DNA from: Patescibacteria group bacterium | GTDB taxonomy: Bacteria > Patescibacteriota > Patescibacteriia > UBA9934 > GWF2-40-263 | Length of the DNA stretch: 64,000 bases | NCBI GenBank assembly: GCA_018814025.1 | Contig: JAHJAM010000023.1 | Span: 1,896-65,895 of the forward strand | Direction: 5' to 3' | Shown: one piece after another, positions 3,467-18,085 of the stretch | Numbering within the stretch: position 1 is the first letter of the stretch | How the letters are laid out: each line of letters starts with the position of its first letter | Made by a program: the position numbers and the translations under genes | The notes under the pieces: model-generated | Told to the model about the DNA's origin: nothing | Databases searched by the model: none | What the model saw: only the letters and a program-made list of their open reading frames with translations

Positions 3467-4906
3467 GTGATACACTATTTCCATATGACTTCCGCGGCCA
3501 AATTTTCCCAAAACATGACCATCCAAATCGCGGGTAAAATCGCGGCCGTTTTTGTCGGCTTGGGCATCATGGCCATCCTCACCCGCTCGCTTGGCCCCGA
3601 AGGTTTTGGCGAATACACCACGGCCGTCACCTTTCTGCAGTTATTTGGCGTAATCGTTGATTTCGGCTTAACTCTCACCTTGTTGGTCATGATTTCCGAA
3701 GTCGGCGCTGATCAAAATAAAATTACTAGTAACATTTTAACCCTGCGTCTTTTCTCCGGCTTGATTCTCTTCGCCTTGGCTCCTTTGGCCGTCCTGCCGT
3801 TTGCTTGGTCCGCCAACGTTAAGCTCGGCGTGGCCGTGGGCGCGGCCGCTTTCCTCTTTATGTCCGGCGCCACCATGCTGGTCGGCGTGTTCCAGCGCCA
3901 TGCTTGCCTGTGGCGGTCAGCCTTGGCGGAAATGTTGAACCGTTTTATCCTGATCGCTTTAGTGGCCTTGCTGGCTTACCTTAATTTGGGCGTGGTCTGG
4001 ATGATCGGCGCCATGATTGTCGCCAACCTTGCCTGGCTGGTTTCCATGATCTATTTCGCCCGGCCTTTCATCGCCATCCGGCCCCGATTTGATTGGCCGC
4101 TTTGGAAAAAAGTTATCTCCCGCTCCTGGCCCATCGCCGTTTCGATCATCTTCAACCTGCTTTACCTCAAGGGCGATATTCTTTTCCTGGCTTATTTCCG
4201 CGACGCCGCCGAAGTCGGTCTCTACGGCGCCGCCTACAAAATCATCGATGTCTTGACCGCCTTGCCGGTCATGTTCATGGGGCTTTTGCTCCCCATCTTG
4301 GTCAGCAGTTGGAGCGCCAATGATCGACCGGAATTCAAAAAACGTTTGGCCAGAACTTTTGACATCTTTATGATCAGCGCCATTCCGATTGTCATCGGCA
4401 CTCAAGCCGTGGCCGAGCCTCTGGCCCTCTTGTTTGCCGGCCCCGGCTTTGCCGCCACCGGCTCGGTTTTGCGCTGGCTGATTATTTCCATCATCGGGGT
4501 GTTCTTGGGCGCGCTTTACGGCCATACCGTTGTCGCTTTAAACAAACAAAAGCAAATGATCTGGGGCTATGTGGCCGTGGCCGTGCTTTCGATCATCGGC
4601 TATCTCTGGCTCATACCTTTATATGGGATGTACGGCGCCGCCTATGTCACGATTTTTTCCGAACTGCTCATCGCCTTGATTACTTTCTTGATGGTCTGGC
4701 GCGTTTCCCAAGCCCTACCCAGCTTATTAGTCACTCTGAAAGCCCTGGTTTCCGCGGCCATCATGTTTGGGGTGATCCAATCTCTGCCCAGCCTGCCGGT
4801 TCTGCTGACTGTCCTGATTGGCGCTTTGGTTTATCTGGGTTTGATGATCTTCTTGCGCGGCCTCAACCCCAAAGAACTCAAACTTCTGATCGCTGACCAA
4901 TCATAA
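3467..4906 (+). CDS. polysaccharide biosynthesis protein / Wzx-like oligosaccharide flippase (MOP superfamily)
   Basis: Polytopic protein of 12-14 TM helices of the expected length; native codon usage; the start could instead be 3485 or 3515. Confidence 0.6.
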   Translation: MIHYFHMTSAAKFSQNMTIQIAGKIAAVFVGLGIMAILTRSLGPEGFGEYTTAVTFLQLFGVIVDFGLTLTLLVMISEVGADQNKITSNILTLRLFSGLILFALAPLAVLPFAWSANVKLGVAVGAAAFLFMSGATMLVGVFQRHACLWRSALAEMLNRFILIALVALLAYLNLGVVWMIGAMIVANLAWLVSMIYFARPFIAIRPRFDWPLWKKVISRSWPIAVSIIFNLLYLKGDILFLAYFRDAAEVGLYGAAYKIIDVLTALPVMFMGLLLPILVSSWSANDRPEFKKRLARTFDIFMISAIPIVIGTQAVAEPLALLFAGPGFAATGSVLRWLIISIIGVFLGALYGHTVVALNKQKQMIWGYVAVAVLSIIGYLWLIPLYGMYGAAYVTIFSELLIALITFLMVWRVSQALPSLLVTLKALVSAAIMFGVIQSLPSLPVLLTVLIGALVYLGLMIFLRGLNPKELKLLIADQS

Positions 4907-11221: not shown

Positions 11222-11614
11222 ATGAAAGAACTTTATTACAAAATCGGCACCAAGTTAGCCATTTTGCCCGTGCTCTTAGCCCCTAAAGCCACCTTCGCCC
11301 AAGCTTTGGGACAAGAAGATCTTTTCGGCGGCATAGGTTCAGAAGAGTTTGCTGGCTCTGCCGGTTTGGGAAGCGCTAATTTGACCGATACCATTGCTTC
11401 CATCATCCGCACCATCCTCGGATTTTTAGGCATCATCGCCGTGGTCATTATCCTCTTCGGCGGTTTCAAGTGGATGACTTCCGGCGGCGCTGAAGAAAAA
11501 GTTAAAGATGCCAAAAAACTCATCATCTCCGGCATTATCGGTTTGGTAATTGTACTCTCGGCCTTTGCCATTGCCTCATTTGTCATCACCAACATCGCTC
11601 AGGTTGCTGCTTAA
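11222..11614 (+). CDS. T4SS-pilin-like (TrbC/VirB2-like) protein, paralog 3
   Basis: FGGFKWMTSGGAEEKVKDAKKLIISGIIGLVIVLSAFAIASFVITN. Confidence 0.55.
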   Translation: MKELYYKIGTKLAILPVLLAPKATFAQALGQEDLFGGIGSEEFAGSAGLGSANLTDTIASIIRTILGFLGIIAVVIILFGGFKWMTSGGAEEKVKDAKKLIISGIIGLVIVLSAFAIASFVITNIAQVAA

Positions 11615-11687
11615 TCGAAACGATTTTCTTGGGCCAACCATTGGTTGGCCCATAACGCAAGCGGATAATTTTTTATCCCTTCGCGTT

Positions 11688-12149
11688 ATGAAAAAGATCC
11701 TCAACGCCTTTTTCTTGATCATTATCGGTCTGTTCTCGTTCAGTGCCGTCCCGGCCTTGGCCCAAGGCGGCGTGGCTTTGGAAGGCCTGGATAAAACCGC
11801 GGGCGTGGCCGAATACACCACTGGCGAATCCGCCAATCTGACTAATGTCGTGGGTGGGTTGATTGGTTCGCTTCTGGGCGTACTCGGCATCGTTTTCGTC
11901 ATCCTGCTTATCTATGGCGGCATCAGATATATGACCGCCAGCGGTGATGAAACGCACGTCAAAGAAGCCAAAAGCCTTTTAATCGCAGCCACTGTCGGAT
12001 TAATTATCACGATTTCTGCTTACGCCATTGCCTCATTTACCCTGTCGAGATTATCCATTGGCTTAGGTATTGATAATCAGGGAAAACTAATCTGCGATCC
12101 GGAAACCGGCGTCTGTGTTCAAGGCGGACCAGCCGTTCCCTCTGACTAA
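11688..12149 (+). CDS. T4SS-pilin-like (TrbC/VirB2-like) protein, paralog 4, with Cys-containing C-terminal tail
   Basis: Start placed at MKKILNAFFLIIIGLFSFSAVPALAQG (signal peptide); YGGIRYMTASGDETHVKEAKSLLIAATVGLIITISAYAIASF; the upstream extension of ORF 11550 is rejected. Confidence 0.5.
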   Translation: MKKILNAFFLIIIGLFSFSAVPALAQGGVALEGLDKTAGVAEYTTGESANLTNVVGGLIGSLLGVLGIVFVILLIYGGIRYMTASGDETHVKEAKSLLIAATVGLIITISAYAIASFTLSRLSIGLGIDNQGKLICDPETGVCVQGGPAVPSD

Positions 12150-12194
12150 TTGCAACATAAATTTTATTTATAATAATCAATTATCTAAATCGCT

Positions 12195-12578
12195 ATGAAA
12201 AACATGTTCTACAAAATCGGAGCCTGGATCTCCGTTCTCCCGGTCCTTCTGCTCCCCACCGCCACTTATGCCGGACTTACCGATGCTGGCACTAACCTGT
12301 CTCAAGTTGGCGATGCCGCTAGTTTATCGCAAAACGAAAGAAGCTTACCGAAATTGATTGGTGGTTTGATTAACGTCATTATTAGTGTCTTGGGAATTGT
12401 CTTCGTGATTCTAATTGTCTACGCGGGTATCCTTTATATGACCGCCGGCGGCGAAAAAGACAAAGTCGAAAAAGCCAAAAATCTGATGATCCAAGCGGTG
12501 ATTGGTTTAGTCATCATTGTGGCCGCTTACGCCATTTCAAGCTTTGTTATCACCCAACTCACCACCATCACTTCATAA
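12195..12578 (+). CDS. T4SS-pilin-like (TrbC/VirB2-like) protein, paralog 5
   Basis: YAGILYMTAGGEKDKVEKAKNLMIQAVIGLVIIVAAYAISSFVITQ. Confidence 0.55.
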   Translation: MKNMFYKIGAWISVLPVLLLPTATYAGLTDAGTNLSQVGDAASLSQNERSLPKLIGGLINVIISVLGIVFVILIVYAGILYMTAGGEKDKVEKAKNLMIQAVIGLVIIVAAYAISSFVITQLTTITS

Positions 12579-13909: not shown

Positions 13910-14111
13910 CGCCTCCTGCTGGTTAAAACCAGACGTTCTGACTGTTAATATTTCAAGGTCCAAAAAAGGCACCAACTCGAGGGGATGTTATACGCCCGGT
14001 AGTCCAACCAATGGTTGCACTTCCGGGTCAAGCCGGAACGTCGTTTCGTTTGGCTTCATAACATAAGTTAGCACCTTTTTTGACCCCTCAAATGTCATTT
14101 TGCAACAGCTA

Positions 14112-14140
14112 AATATATCACAATTTTACGATTTTGTCAA
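14112..14140 (-). promoter_or_regulatory. consensus sigma70-like promoter (TTGACA-N17-TATATT) for the lipoprotein genes
   Basis: Minus-strand TTGACA at 14135-14140 and TATATT at 14112-14117 with an exact 17-nt spacer; a leader of about 190 nt reaches the gene start near 13909. Confidence 0.5.
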
Positions 14141-14197
14141 CCCGATAGGACAGCAAACGGTTGTACTACCGGGTCAAGGGTTTGAGGCTAATTTTAG

Positions 14198-14238
14198 TAA
14201 AAAAAGAGCCCAAGCGCGTGTAACAACGCGCTTGGGCT
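14198..14238 (-). terminator. intrinsic terminator of the 799-aa membrane protein gene
   Basis: Minus strand AGCCCAAGCGCG-TTGTTACA-CGCGCTTGGGCT followed by CTTTTTTT. Confidence 0.65.
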
Positions 14239-14243
14239 AGAAG

Positions 14244-16643
14244 TTAAAAGGACTTGCAATTCTTATCGAACTTAGCCTTGGCCGCCTGATTGTTGGCCAT
14301 CAGCTCCTTCCAATTGGCACACAGAGCCTGCTGTCTGGGCGTGAGCTTCGGCTTTCCTCCCTGCTTCTTGCCGCCAGTCCCAATGGACCGAACAACCGGG
14401 CTTGCTCTGGGCAGATCGTTCTTGGAAACCTCGCCCCTGAACAGGAGCCAGCCCAGGAAGATGGCAACCAACATGGCCGATATTGTAGCGATCAAACCGG
14501 CCAAGTCAGGGCTGAAAGCGCTCAGCCCATCTTTGTACGAGCGTTGCATGCTTGCCCTGACAACCCCGCCGATCACCAAACAAATGATGATAGACAGAAT
14601 CACGAACAGTGCCTTACCACTGAGATCAGGCAGCTGATCAACGCCCATGATCGACAGAGAACTGTCGTTGATCATGTATTTCTGCTGGCCGGAAGGCGTC
14701 TCCACGGTCTTGACCAGAACTCCGGGCAAATTGACCATCGTGCCCTTGGGCAGGACCACGATCCCGGCCGCTCCGTCGCACGTGAAGTGCTCGACCAAAG
14801 CCTTTTTCTGCGCTTTAGCCTCAGTCTGCTTGCTGACGTTGTTCTTATTCTCCTCAGTCAACAAGCACTTGTCAGTCAAAGCCGCACTCAGCTTCTCACC
14901 GAAGACCTTGAGGGCCGGCTCGTAGCGCTGGCCCGGCAAAGGCACAACCAGGGTGTTAACCTGCTCGCCCTTGTCCGAAAACTCAGCCTGCCAAGCCACG
15001 GTCACGGGAAAAGCTGCACTCTCGCGCAAATCGTTGATCACGGCCGCTCGGCCGCACACCAACAACATCACGATCGCCAGCAAGATCGGCCAAGTGCCGA
15101 TCCGCTCTTCGCTTTTGGCCGAAAACAGCCAGGCCGAGAGCAGCAGCGCCGCCAACGTTCCCACCACTCGGCCGAACATCGCAAAGTCAGCCAAGTTAAT
15201 GAACACGCACAGGACCATGTTGAGCACGATCGCCCAAGCCAGACCCCGAGCGTAATTCACGCCCCAATGGAAATCTCGGCCGGCCGCGATTTCCGTGACT
15301 CGATCCAGCACTGCCTCCACAGCCTTCACCGGAAGCAGTAGCAAGGCAAGCGGCAGTCCCAGCCCCATGGCCAGCCCAATCGCCAAGACCGGGTAACCGA
15401 TCAGTGTGGCCAACCATGGCAAAGCCAGGAGCAACACCGCGATCAGCAAGCCCACAATGGACCGCTTGACCCAGGTCCAGATGAACTGTTTTCGGCGCGT
15501 GGCGACTTGGTCGCCTCCCTCATCGTCCGTAAACAAAGAGAGAATCGTCGATTTCCACTCCTGGAAGGGCGCCAATTCCGCGCCGCTCACATCAAGAGCG
15601 GTGATGTATTCGATCATGAACTCTTCCGGCATTGTGCCGTCAGGCTCAATTTTTCCCTCGAGCTGATGAGCCAGCTCTTCCAGGACCTGCACATTGCGAA
15701 TCGTCGCCGGATTATTGACCGCTTCCAAGAACTTCTCAAAGTTCTTGTACTTGACTGAGGTGAAGCTCAGCGAAGTCGTCCCGCGCATCCGACGTGCCAC
15801 CGACCTGATCACGGCCACGTGGACCTTGATCAACAGCGGACTGGCCTGGTCGAAATTCTTGACCGAAGGCTGGGTAGCGGTTGAAGCTTTCTTTTGAAGA
15901 TCAACCTCACCCACATTCCCCATGCACACCGGACAGAAGAATTTCTTCTGAGCCAAAGCGATGCCGATGGGATGAACTTCGACTTTCCAGAGCTTGCCTC
16001 CGACCAGCACATCCTTTTTTAACTTGTTGTCCCACCGTGTGGTCTGGGCATTCAGCTCCTCAAACATAGCCTCCGCACTCGCATACAGCTCGCACGGAAC
16101 CACCGGATTGCCATTCTCCTTCTTCATGACCGTCCCGTCGGCATTGAGCGCCACGCGATGCGCACCAGCCACCCGGGGGGCGACCGCTGCCATCTCGTAC
16201 TCGCCCACCGACGCGGCCGTCGTACCCGCGGCCGGCGTACCCAATTTCTCATCAACCGTCCGGTCAATGAGATCTTCGAGATCCGCATCCGCCAGCCCGT
16301 CCACAGCACCGAAGCACAGATGAGGAATCAGGGCCTTGATCACGGCTTTGGTCTTGGGCTTCAAGTAAGCGCTTGGAATAAAATCCACGAGCCACTCAGC
16401 CGCCCCGCCGACCGCTCGTCCGAACATCTCGAACCCCGGCAGTTTGCGCGCGCCATTGATCAACAGGAAGAAGGACTTGGCGAACTCGTTCTCATTCTGG
16501 CGCTTGGCCAGCTCCACCAGCAATGAACCGGCCACGTTCCGAGCCCCTTTCTCAAAGGTCTCGGTTCCGACCGCCTTGCCGGCAGTACCAAAAAAGTCTC
16601 CAAACCTGCTCAAATCCAAGTCTCCAAAAGTCACCTTGGCCAT
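14244..16643 (-). CDS. large polytopic membrane protein of unknown function (about 400-aa soluble N-terminal region with a CPVC motif, then two TM clusters and a basic C-terminal tail)
   Basis: 799-aa ORF with a good SD (GGAGGAAAGAG) before the ATG; GC-rich with AAG-preferring codon usage unlike the flanks; I recognise no known domain. Confidence 0.5.
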   Translation of the reverse strand: MAKVTFGDLDLSRFGDFFGTAGKAVGTETFEKGARNVAGSLLVELAKRQNENEFAKSFFLLINGARKLPGFEMFGRAVGGAAEWLVDFIPSAYLKPKTKAVIKALIPHLCFGAVDGLADADLEDLIDRTVDEKLGTPAAGTTAASVGEYEMAAVAPRVAGAHRVALNADGTVMKKENGNPVVPCELYASAEAMFEELNAQTTRWDNKLKKDVLVGGKLWKVEVHPIGIALAQKKFFCPVCMGNVGEVDLQKKASTATQPSVKNFDQASPLLIKVHVAVIRSVARRMRGTTSLSFTSVKYKNFEKFLEAVNNPATIRNVQVLEELAHQLEGKIEPDGTMPEEFMIEYITALDVSGAELAPFQEWKSTILSLFTDDEGGDQVATRRKQFIWTWVKRSIVGLLIAVLLLALPWLATLIGYPVLAIGLAMGLGLPLALLLLPVKAVEAVLDRVTEIAAGRDFHWGVNYARGLAWAIVLNMVLCVFINLADFAMFGRVVGTLAALLLSAWLFSAKSEERIGTWPILLAIVMLLVCGRAAVINDLRESAAFPVTVAWQAEFSDKGEQVNTLVVPLPGQRYEPALKVFGEKLSAALTDKCLLTEENKNNVSKQTEAKAQKKALVEHFTCDGAAGIVVLPKGTMVNLPGVLVKTVETPSGQQKYMINDSSLSIMGVDQLPDLSGKALFVILSIIICLVIGGVVRASMQRSYKDGLSAFSPDLAGLIATISAMLVAIFLGWLLFRGEVSKNDLPRASPVVRSIGTGGKKQGGKPKLTPRQQALCANWKELMANNQAAKAKFDKNCKSF

Positions 16644-16830
16644 CTCTTTCCTCCGTATACGGCTAAGCCGATTTGTTTTTAGGTTGTTAACGATCTATTT
16701 AAACTCGGCTAAGCCGAGAGATCTCCCCATATGGGATTGCCGATTAATCGGCCTACCCGCATACGAAAGACACGTAAATATACCATATTTTAGCCAAAAT
16801 GTCAACCCTGTCTGACAGGGCCCTTGAAAC
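16644..16830 (-). promoter_or_regulatory. promoter (TTGACA-N17-TATATT, minus strand, 16777-16805) plus a palindrome-rich 5' leader for the 799-aa gene
   Basis: Palindromes CCCTGTCTGACAGGG (16806-16820, abutting the -35), GCCGATTAATCGGC (16739-16752), CGGCTAAGCCG twice (16660-16670, 16706-16716) and CCGTATACGG (16653-16662). Confidence 0.45.
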
Positions 16831-16864
16831 AAAAAATTCCATCACCGGGTGATGGAATTTTTAC
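16831..16864. terminator. bidirectional intrinsic terminator (ends the Fe-S operon on the minus strand)
   Basis: AAAAAATTCCATCACC-GG-GTGATGGAATTTTT, a symmetric hairpin with A and T runs. Confidence 0.65.
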
Positions 16865-16879
16865 AATATTTAAGCTGAA

Positions 16880-18085
16880 TTAAGCCAAAATCTCCTGATC
16901 AATACCCTGCCAATTCATCACTTTCGCCAAATCCCCGGTTCTTTGGTCAATCACCTTTGTCAGCGGTACTCGATCGCTGTTGCGCCCCATCACCACCGCC
17001 CCCACTAATTTGTTATCCCTCATCAACATTAATGTTGGACCATGCTCGTCTCCTTTTCTCACCAAAACCTTGTCCGCAGCTGCTAGTTCTACATCACCCA
17101 CAAAAGTAATATCCAATCCCAAAATCTCCATTGCATAACTTGGCACTTGTTGATATTCACTCCGCTCACCTGCCATAGACTTCGCCACCACTCGTCCTTG
17201 GCTCATGGCTTTTTGCCAATTGCCAAACATAATGTGCCGATTGGCGACTACGTCAAAATATTCCGCCACATCCCCAACCGCCCAGACGTCTTCAACATTG
17301 GTTTCTAAAAACTCATTCACTTTCACTCCGCGATCAACTTCAATCTCTGCATCCTTAATCCAACCCAAATCACTCTGGACCCCAATTCCAATTCCCAAAA
17401 TATCACACTCAACTTTTTGATTTTCCAGTTTCATTCCCTCTAATTCCTTTTCACCTTCGACTCCTAAAAATTTTTGTTCAGTCAAAATTTTCACACCTTG
17501 CTGGCGCAAATGTTCATTTAAAAATTCACCGGCTTCTTCATTCAAATTCTTGCTCCAAAAGTGTTGGCCGCGCAAAGCGATGGTGGTCGGCAATTCATGA
17601 GCAACAAATAGGTTCAAGTATTCGCAAGCGATTAAACCGCCGCCCCAAACCGCGGCCGGGTCGCCTTTTTTTCGCTCATTTAACAACTGTTTTAAGTGAT
17701 CCGCATCATCCAAACTCCGCAAATAAGAGACTCCACGCACATCTCCATCCACCACTCTTGGTTCATTTCCCGAAGCAATTAACAATTTATCATAAGGCAA
17801 CTCACGCCCATCAGAGAGTTCCACAAACTTATTTTTGGTATCACATTTCACTACTTCCACCCCACGCAACCATTCAATATTTTTCTCTTCATACCAACTT
17901 TCCTTTTTCAAAAACACCCGTTCGCGTTCTACTAAACCTTTTAAGTAATGCGGCAACAACACCCGCGAATATAACGGATGTTGTTCTTGGCTGATTAAAA
18001 TAATCTCACCGTCTGAATCAAGTTTTCGCAGTTCTTCGGCCGCTGTTGTACCAGCCACGCCTCCGCCCACGATTACGTACTTCAT
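16880..18085 (-). CDS. FAD-dependent pyridine nucleotide-disulfide oxidoreductase (ferredoxin/rubredoxin-reductase or NADH-oxidase-like)
   Basis: MKYVIVGGGVAGTTAAEEL Rossmann GxGxxG at the N-terminus; a second NAD-binding motif (GGGLIACE); about 400 aa. Confidence 0.7.
   Translation of the reverse strand: MKYVIVGGGVAGTTAAEELRKLDSDGEIILISQEQHPLYSRVLLPHYLKGLVERERVFLKKESWYEEKNIEWLRGVEVVKCDTKNKFVELSDGRELPYDKLLIASGNEPRVVDGDVRGVSYLRSLDDADHLKQLLNERKKGDPAAVWGGGLIACEYLNLFVAHELPTTIALRGQHFWSKNLNEEAGEFLNEHLRQQGVKILTEQKFLGVEGEKELEGMKLENQKVECDILGIGIGVQSDLGWIKDAEIEVDRGVKVNEFLETNVEDVWAVGDVAEYFDVVANRHIMFGNWQKAMSQGRVVAKSMAGERSEYQQVPSYAMEILGLDITFVGDVELAAADKVLVRKGDEHGPTLMLMRDNKLVGAVVMGRNSDRVPLTKVIDQRTGDLAKVMNWQGIDQEILA

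Follow-up and report, generated by a model that had tools for sequence, protein, structure and literature searches.

The palindromes that crowd the region in front of a gene for a 799-aa membrane protein in a Patescibacteria group bacterium mostly reflect, at the DNA level, a conserved 5' leader that is heavily folded. Their main structural element is a 25-nt long-range inverted repeat, which brings the extreme 5' end of the predicted mRNA together with the Shine-Dalgarno (SD) region in a closing helix, here termed P1. As modelled, P1 has the hallmark of an SD-sequestering leader, namely a helix between an upstream strand and the SD that is conserved with compensatory changes. From the predicted folds we hypothesize, with moderate confidence, that the leader is a default-closed translational lock, in which the 5' end pairs with the SD and thereby hides the ribosome binding site (RBS) and caps the 5' end of a strongly transcribed mRNA.

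A conserved layout upstream of a rare orphan gene

On the minus strand of the 64-kb stretch of DNA that was analysed (the window), the order from 5' to 3' is oxidoreductase stop codon, terminator, palindrome, promoter, a leader of about 128 nt, SD and ATG, and the genes 5' of the locus are nifS, nifU, ferredoxin and oxidoreductase. The features are as follows.

16880, minus strand: stop codon of the upstream operon, at the end of the Pyr_redox_2 oxidoreductase gene
16826 to 16862, minus strand: intrinsic terminator of the upstream nifS-nifU-ferredoxin-Pyr_redox operon, with a 15-bp stem (AAAAAUUCCAUCACC/GGUGAUGGAAUUUUU, 100% complementary) and a U-run
16806 to 16820, minus strand: palindrome CCCTGTCTGACAGGG (CCCTGTCAGACAGGG on the minus strand) adjoining the -35 hexamer
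16777 to 16805, minus strand: sigma-70-type promoter TTGACA-ttttggctaaaatatgg-TATATT (-35 at 16805-16800, -10 at 16782-16777, TG extended -10, score 11/12)
16771, minus strand: probable transcription start G, from promoter geometry, 6 nt past the -10 hexamer; the G is invariant in five loci
16757 to 16770, minus strand: P1 5' strand UCUUUCGUAUGCGG, the 'anti-SD' arm, transcript nt 2-15, at the extreme 5' end of the predicted mRNA
16746 to 16755, minus strand: 5' strand of the P1 extension (UAGGCCGAUU), overlapping the 5' half of P2
16739 to 16752, minus strand: hairpin P2, GCCGA-UUAA-UCGGC (palindrome GCCGATTAATCGGC), alternative to the P1 extension
16721 to 16735, minus strand: hairpin P3, CCC-AUAUG-GGG, with the SD-like block CAUAUGGGGAGAU (16733-16721), a candidate decoy
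16726 to 16735: palindrome CCCATATGGG
16692 to 16723, minus strand: outer helix P4, GAUCU/AGAUC, invariant, enclosing P4b and the conserved loop UUUAAAU
16704 to 16718, minus strand: hairpin P4b, CUCGGC-UUA-GCCGAG, variable, containing the copy of palindrome CGGCTAAGCCG at 16706-16716
16670 to 16690, minus strand: G-free, CA/A-rich single-stranded tract UUAACAACCUAAAAACAAAUC, unpaired in every minimum free energy (MFE) fold
16660 to 16673, minus strand: 3' strand of the P1 extension (AAUCGGCUUA); alternatively hairpin P5, CGGC-UUA-GCCG, at 16660-16670 (the other copy of CGGCTAAGCCG)
16653 to 16662: palindrome CCGTATACGG
16649 to 16662, minus strand: P1 3' strand CCGUAUACGGAGGA, which holds GGAGG (16650-16654) and CCGTATACGG
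16746 to 16770 with 16649 to 16673: the 25-nt long-range inverted repeat, located with a repeat finder
16650 to 16654, minus strand: Shine-Dalgarno sequence GGAGG
14244 to 16643, minus strand: downstream gene for the 799-aa polytopic membrane protein, ATG at 16643-16641

The original prediction, made from this sequence, had estimated a leader of about 120 nt, in good agreement with the 128 nt that separate the predicted start G at 16771 from the ATG at 16643.

The 799-aa protein matched no Pfam, NCBIfam or PHROG family, and NCBIfam and PHROG searches of its neighbours gave nothing informative. The one exact copy in the databases, from a Patescibacteria group bacterium (GCA_018822945.1), is annotated as hypothetical. 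Word-indexed homologue searches returned three clusters only, GTDB genomes scanned with a pattern of the protein gave no match, and an exhaustive HMM search across 1.84 billion representative proteins yielded just four strong matches, the query proteins included, and eleven weak ones; from these few matches we conclude that the family is rare and fast-evolving. An AlphaFold2 model built on a three-sequence alignment was unusable (mean pLDDT 42.8). Small T4SS_pilin genes (PF18895) lie at 11550-12578 on the plus strand, about 0.1 kb downstream of the group formed by the 799-aa, 219-aa and 180-aa genes and on the opposite strand to it, and may hint at a cell-surface role for the orphan proteins.

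Because protein homologues were few, further leaders were reached through the conserved upstream Pyr_redox gene. The protein search had yielded L001 and L002/L003 (44% and 41% identity), and walking from the oxidoreductase gene added L010, L011, L012, L014, L016 and L017; the L010 leader is the same as that of L001, and the L011 leader is partial and the same as that of L002. The layout nifS-nifU-ferredoxin-Pyr_redox, intergenic region, large orphan membrane protein is shared by the loci compared, which supply seven syntenic leaders and represent five or more lineages. Wherever the locus is complete, the oxidoreductase gene is followed by one for a large orphan protein, inverted in L017. The inverted gene of L017 retains a related promoter (TTGACTttttgcccaaaatatgcTATATT) and an identical leader start (GUCUUUC) at 4407-4488, and a divergent promoter of the same consensus lies about 25 nt away, pointing in the opposite direction. 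The orphan proteins form a chain of weak homology across the loci: 25-26% identity between the window and L012, 35% over the N-terminal 212 residues between L012 and L014 (E 3e-26), and matches at E 1e-7 between L012 and L017 and at E 4e-4 between L002 and L016.

Among the four close relatives (window, L001, L002 and L012), promoter and leader share 84-88% identity, against 74-76% for the upstream enzyme gene at the DNA level and 25-44% for the downstream proteins. Blocks invariant among the four are TTGACATTTTGGCTAAAATATG, TGTCTTTCGTAT, GGGAGATCTC, ATAGATCGTTA, CGGCTT.GCCG and CGGAGG. Given a leader conserved at 84-88% in front of a protein conserved at 25-44%, we propose that there is strong selection on the expression of this fast-evolving membrane protein. 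The leader interiors of L014, L016 and L017 differ from those of the four, and when the four were made into a covariance model, it detected neither a further copy in the window nor a match in L014, L016, L017 or two more contigs that carry the promoter block (L005 and L006, described below). A DNA pattern for the leader core matched a viral coding region, and shorter promoter patterns matched coding sequence in a Phocaeicola response regulator (peptide DILAKIW) and in a viral contig; these matches were rejected as chance.

The predicted 5' end of the leader pairs with the Shine-Dalgarno region

Folded singly, all seven syntenic leaders have MFE structures that are closed by a helix between the 5' end and the SD region, around all other hairpins. 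The z-scores of the folds against shuffles are -5.7, -4.8, -4.7, -4.8, -3.6 and -5.6, and L017 folds alike. The 5' strand of P1 begins 4-6 nt past the -10 hexamer in every locus, and its 3' strand ends at the SD. When the P1 alignment was registered on the -10 box and the SD alone, 90.5% of its cells were paired and 10 of the 14 pairs were changed on both sides (among six distinct sequences). The covariation score of 0.795, compared with 0.234 for shuffles, was reached by none of 500 shuffles, and slid registers gave only 36-60% pairing. Structure prediction with covariation, which the original prediction had proposed as a check, thus supports the helix between the 5' end and the SD, with compensatory double changes in those 10 of 14 pairs. 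Within the four close relatives the changes in P1 are one-sided wobble changes only, and the compensatory changes come from the three distant leaders, which were registered by hand and escape the covariance model.

P1 is extended in the window genome by a second helix of 10 bp, giving 14 + 10 bp with one mismatch; it measures 18-21 bp in L002, L012 and L014, and is branched in L001, L016 and L017. Duplex energies between the 5' and 3' strands range from -16 to -30 kcal/mol at 37 °C, values matched by 0 of 1000 shuffles for the four close relatives, 2 of 1000 for L014, 12 of 1000 for L016 and 111 of 1000 for L017. An RNA thermometer of the ROSE or fourU type was rejected on these energies, which are not those of a weak, mismatched helix. 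The SD is predicted to be unpaired with a probability of 0.002-0.2, and the predicted cost of opening the RBS is 8.7-16 kcal/mol across the leaders. For the 799-aa gene this cost is 13.1 kcal/mol, a high value that is nevertheless no outlier, ranking fourth when 27 window genes, called crudely, are compared (median 8.0, sd 3.7). In L014, P1 covers the first G of the SD and the rest of GGAG is covered by weaker, mismatched pairs. The CUUUC:GGAGG segment retains G-U wobbles in five of the seven leaders.

Most palindromes are local hairpins enclosed by the closing helix

The palindromes listed by the original prediction are all found where it placed them, and its statement that their density is far above chance holds. 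Counting perfect inverted repeats with arms of at least 5 and loops of at most 4 per 187 nt, we found eight in 16644-16830, the maximum of the 64 kb (mean 1.12, sd 1.09; next-best 5); only 0.06% of window positions reach eight, all of them overlapping this interval. The list had missed CCCATATGGG and the 25-nt long-range repeat. It had also counted two copies of CGGCTAAGCCG: both are present, but the copy at 16706-16716 is really the 15-nt palindrome CTCGGCTAAGCCGAG (16704-18) and the pair is a coincidence of the window genome; in L012 the first copy reads CCCCGCCGUUGGCGGGG.

Most of the palindromes are local hairpins within P1 (P2, P3, P4b and P5). The P2 sequence GCCGAuuaaUCGGC is replaced in orthologues by GCUGAaaaaUCAGC or GCCaaaacGGC, and in L001 the hairpin reads GCUGA-AAAA-UCAGC, with a compensatory change of C-G to U-A. 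In P4b, by RNAalifold and pair counting, four of the six pairs are doubly changed and 98.5% of cells are paired, and CUCGGCuuaGCCGAG becomes an 8-bp, 7-bp or 22-bp hairpin of unrelated sequence in orthologues. An extensively folded 5' UTR, one of the two readings offered at the outset, is therefore borne out by low-energy folds (z -3.6 to -5.7), by stems that pair despite sequence change and by a closing helix that covaries.

No terminator-like site was found between 16643 and 16777, which speaks against a transcription attenuator, and no plus-strand promoter was found within the leader. A leader peptide was rejected because the 17-codon and 10-11-codon open reading frames are not conserved, L001 stopping after two codons and L002 reading GUG UAG. 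The shorter frame (AUG GGG AGA UCU ..., 16697-16732, minus strand), found in the window, L001 and L012, begins in the P3 loop and has no SD, and it probably encodes no leader peptide.

A single-stranded tract and a candidate decoy suggest possible routes of release

All seven leaders have a G-free, CA/A-rich run 24-38 nt before the AUG, 20-29 nt long in six of them and 14 nt in L016, and none of the MFE folds pairs it. By analogy, this tract resembles the single-stranded standby platforms that permit initiation at structured sites (PMC5934652, PMC7708055). A second candidate element is the SD-like block CAUAUGGGGAGAU, identical in the window, L001 and L012 and variant in L002. When successively longer prefixes of the transcript were folded, the 5' arm sat on this block until the 3' arm had been made (five of seven leaders). 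Compared with leaders whose interiors were shuffled, the duplex between arm and decoy lacks significance (p 0.02-0.86), and L017 and L014 form it only weakly; we regard the pairing, seen in predicted folds, as a possibility. The barrier from the early to the closed fold, computed with findpath, is 2-10 kcal/mol, and with so low a refolding barrier a long-lived kinetic trap is unlikely.

For the translational lock that we propose, the analysis shows the structure, how it is conserved and covaries and, in predicted ensembles, the occlusion of the SD; where transcription starts, how translation and stability are affected and how the lock is released are the parts that we infer. The RBS would be occluded at equilibrium and the 5' end buried, with about one unpaired nucleotide; because of this occlusion and burial, the strongly transcribed message would be long-lived and its translation low or conditional. 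Release might proceed by several routes. The conserved G-free, CA-rich strand could act as a standby or loading platform; the anti-SD of the rRNA could compete for the SD and, given access, would be expected to win, as it would pair with GGAGG better than does the wobble-rich CUUUC of the leader; and the decoy CAUAUGGGGAGAU could keep the anti-SD arm occupied during emergence of the RBS. Further candidates are processing and a trans-acting factor.

Alternative readings and known systems

The first alternative is that the leader is a processing or stability element only, its quasi-continuous end helix of 18-25 bp being an RNase III-type stem or a protective 5' stem that sets mRNA half-life, with no translational switch. 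For an RNase III stem, a near-continuous duplex of at least 20 bp, roughly two turns of helix, would be expected. In favour of the reading are the length of P1 and its extension (14 + 10 bp with one mismatch in the window, 18-21 bp in L002, L012 and L014) and the approximately one unpaired nucleotide at the predicted 5' end, but branches break the helix in L001, L017 and L016, and the reading overlaps with the translational lock more than it excludes it. RNase III-type cleavage could free the SD, as reported for E. coli adhE. We think it rather unlikely that processing or stability is all that the leader serves.

Precedents for processing exist among type I toxin mRNAs, in which part of the 5' leader sequesters the RBS and activity comes via 5' processing and/or a standby region (tisB, dinQ, zorO; PMC5066626, PMC5397157, PMC7708055, PMC5934652); primary transcripts that are inert until the 5' end is removed are documented for dinQ (PMC5066626) and zorO (PMC5397157). 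The leader described here shares with these mRNAs a locked RBS and has a G-free single strand just upstream of it; unlike them it precedes a 799-aa membrane protein and not a small toxin, and no antisense promoter or sRNA was detected. A type I toxin-antitoxin leader was rejected as a candidate, given the 799-aa gene, the lack of a plus-strand promoter in the leader and a 10-11-codon frame that is not conserved in L002.

The second alternative is purely kinetic control of the Levivirus type, in which a metastable hairpin between arm and decoy delays closing and confines translation to a brief period after synthesis. In the 5' UTR of the MS2 maturation gene, the SD is bound by a complementary strand from further upstream, an interaction that closes a cloverleaf, silences the RBS and is backed by covariation; a transient hairpin first sequesters that complementary strand (PMC4615214). 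The present architecture is the same in that a strand near the 5' end forms a long-distance helix with the SD, the helix covaries and an alternative hairpin for the upstream strand is predicted: in prefix MFE folds the arm stays with the decoy up to the point at which the 3' arm has been made. The differences are that our leader is cellular, has a sigma-70-type promoter and lacks sequence homology to MS2, that its helix has 14 bp plus the extension compared with 7 nt in MS2, and that the predicted barrier of the transient state is low. With findpath barriers of only 2-10 kcal/mol and a decoy duplex no better than chance, and weak in L017 and L014, we consider it doubtful that control is purely kinetic. 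By analogy, the translational lock would work like a Levivirus maturation-gene leader, and also like an inert type I toxin transcript, without homology to either.

The same logic has a further cellular parallel. Leaders of the rpoS type, in which the RBS region is paired with a strand from further upstream, need a factor that captures this strand in order to open, a role played by trans-acting sRNAs. Pairing of an upstream strand with the RBS and nearby A-rich (AAN)n single strands are common to both, whereas here the leader is far shorter and the strand that inhibits is the extreme 5' end itself. We know of no sRNA or Hfq for this lineage, and none was found.

A ligand-sensing riboswitch, in which the junction would be the aptamer and the arm, decoy and SD the expression platform, with a metabolite selecting the open or the closed state, appears improbable. 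The leader has the size (~130-175 nt), multi-stem junction and SD occlusion of Rfam cis-regulatory leaders and riboswitches; the four close relatives have conserved blocks that are unpaired or invariant (GGGGAGAUCUC, UUWAWAUAGAUCGUUACAA), the predicted pairings include mutually exclusive ones, and the noncoding sequence is better conserved than the flanking genes. Unlike those families, the leader has no conserved core beyond the four close relatives: the interior is not kept in L014, L016 and L017, where the four-leader covariance model finds no match at E <= 10, and much of the conservation of the invariant blocks could reflect double pairing roles. The covariance models of Rfam 15 returned only tRNAs at the gathering threshold over the whole window, and at E <= 10 the only match in the interval was a spurious one of mir-3938 to the upstream terminator hairpin; the regulated gene, moreover, encodes an orphan membrane protein without a metabolic link.

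We assign a similarly low probability to a Patescibacteria-specific two-state RNA of a new class, in which a signal (host contact, a metabolite or a protein on the CA-rich platform) would shift the arm between decoy and SD and so activate a surface or membrane protein that diversifies rapidly; the 29-nt promoter block would then mark a shared, lineage-wide transcriptional programme.

The promoter and the case for DNA operators

The minus-strand promoter TTGACA-N17-TATATT lies at the position given by the original prediction, as does the palindrome next to its -35 hexamer (CCCTGTCTGACAGGG, 16806-16820). The 17-nt spacer is the same in the window, L001 and L002, and one base is changed in L012; it contains two imperfect palindromes that had escaped the earlier listing. 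Other promoters of these loci follow a looser consensus, TTGACAwwwTsGCkAwwwTrTGsTATATT, which explains part, not all, of the conservation of the spacer. A sigma-54 reading of TGGC...TGG in the spacer was rejected on inspection, the spacing being off by one and the GC absent.

The exact 23-mer TTGACATTTTGGCTAAAATATGG also occurs in two JGI metagenome contigs (L005 and L006), where it is intergenic and precedes unrelated orphan genes beside housekeeping genes. The promoter 29-mer TTGACATTTTGGCTAAAATATGGTATATT is exact in L005 (2563-2592, 30 nt) and matches at 27 of 29 positions in L006 (1722-1750); the two contigs are unrelated and very different in G+C, with relA/topA/dprA and tyrS/valS as neighbours. 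The last codons of the oxidoreductase gene, GAGATTTTGGCTTAA (16878-16894), repeat the promoter spacer GACATTTTGGCTAAAA (16787-16803), and this direct repeat with its 91-nt spacing is kept in L001, L002 and L012.

The 15-nt palindrome at the -35 hexamer is not kept as a palindrome in orthologues and is specific to the window genome. Five of the seven loci keep its core CTGTCAG (16812-16818), which stands at a constant 6 nt on the upstream side of TTGACA (CTGTTAG in L001, also L002 and L012, and TGTCAG in L016; missing in L014 and L017), so that a protein site at CTGTCAG is possible. Terminator hairpins of different sequence stand at the corresponding position in orthologues.

Operator sites for dimeric regulators were the other reading offered by the original prediction, which suggested searching for a regulon. 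That search found nothing in the 64 kb: there are no further exact copies of the palindromes, and one-mismatch matches fall mostly inside long open reading frames. It is highly improbable that the leader palindromes are DNA operators of one or more dimeric transcription factors: the palindromes are perfect, CTGTCAG is fixed 6 nt upstream of the -35 hexamer in five of seven loci, and the spacer near-palindrome ATTTTnGCnAAAAT is the same in L001, L002 and the two unrelated contigs and one base off in L012, but the leader palindromes differ between orthologues in sequence, loop length and stem length while complementarity persists, as in RNA, no further copies lie outside coding sequence in the 64 kb, the palindrome at the -35 hexamer is specific to one genome, and much of the spacer similarity is a lineage-wide promoter consensus.

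Related elements were observed elsewhere in these genomes. A second TTGACA-N17-TATATT promoter lies within 13910-14140 on the minus strand of the window, followed by a leader of ~195 nt and a gene for a 219-aa putative lipoprotein (ATG 13909). This leader has a closing helix (UUUGAGGGG...CCCCUCGAG and AAAAAAGGUGC...GGUGCCUUUUUU, z -4.9), is kept in L002 (5913-6111), L012 (9849-9905) and L016 (7853-8060), has no Rfam match and may be a cis-regulatory RNA or an sRNA in its own right. The motif (G)GCTAAAATTAGCC, with the inverted repeat GCTAA/TTAGC, recurs in several of these genomes directly behind terminators or ahead of promoters: on the minus strand of the window (14186-14198), in L002 (~5892), in L013 (~1845) and in L014 (2745-2770). 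The CGGCTTAGCCG hairpins of the leader resemble a compressed form of it.

Significance

The mechanism class of the proposed translational lock is ordinary: locking of the SD is familiar, though not catalogued for this RNA. Less ordinary is a noncoding region that is better conserved than the coding sequence under its control. Little is known of RNA-level gene control in Patescibacteria (CPR); a perspective on the group mentions riboswitches only as future engineering tools (PMC11665869), and our literature search found no native regulatory RNA described for Patescibacteria. If the lock were confirmed, the leader would provide the seed alignment for a new RNA family and a concrete, mutable element for studying and engineering translation control in ultrasmall bacteria.
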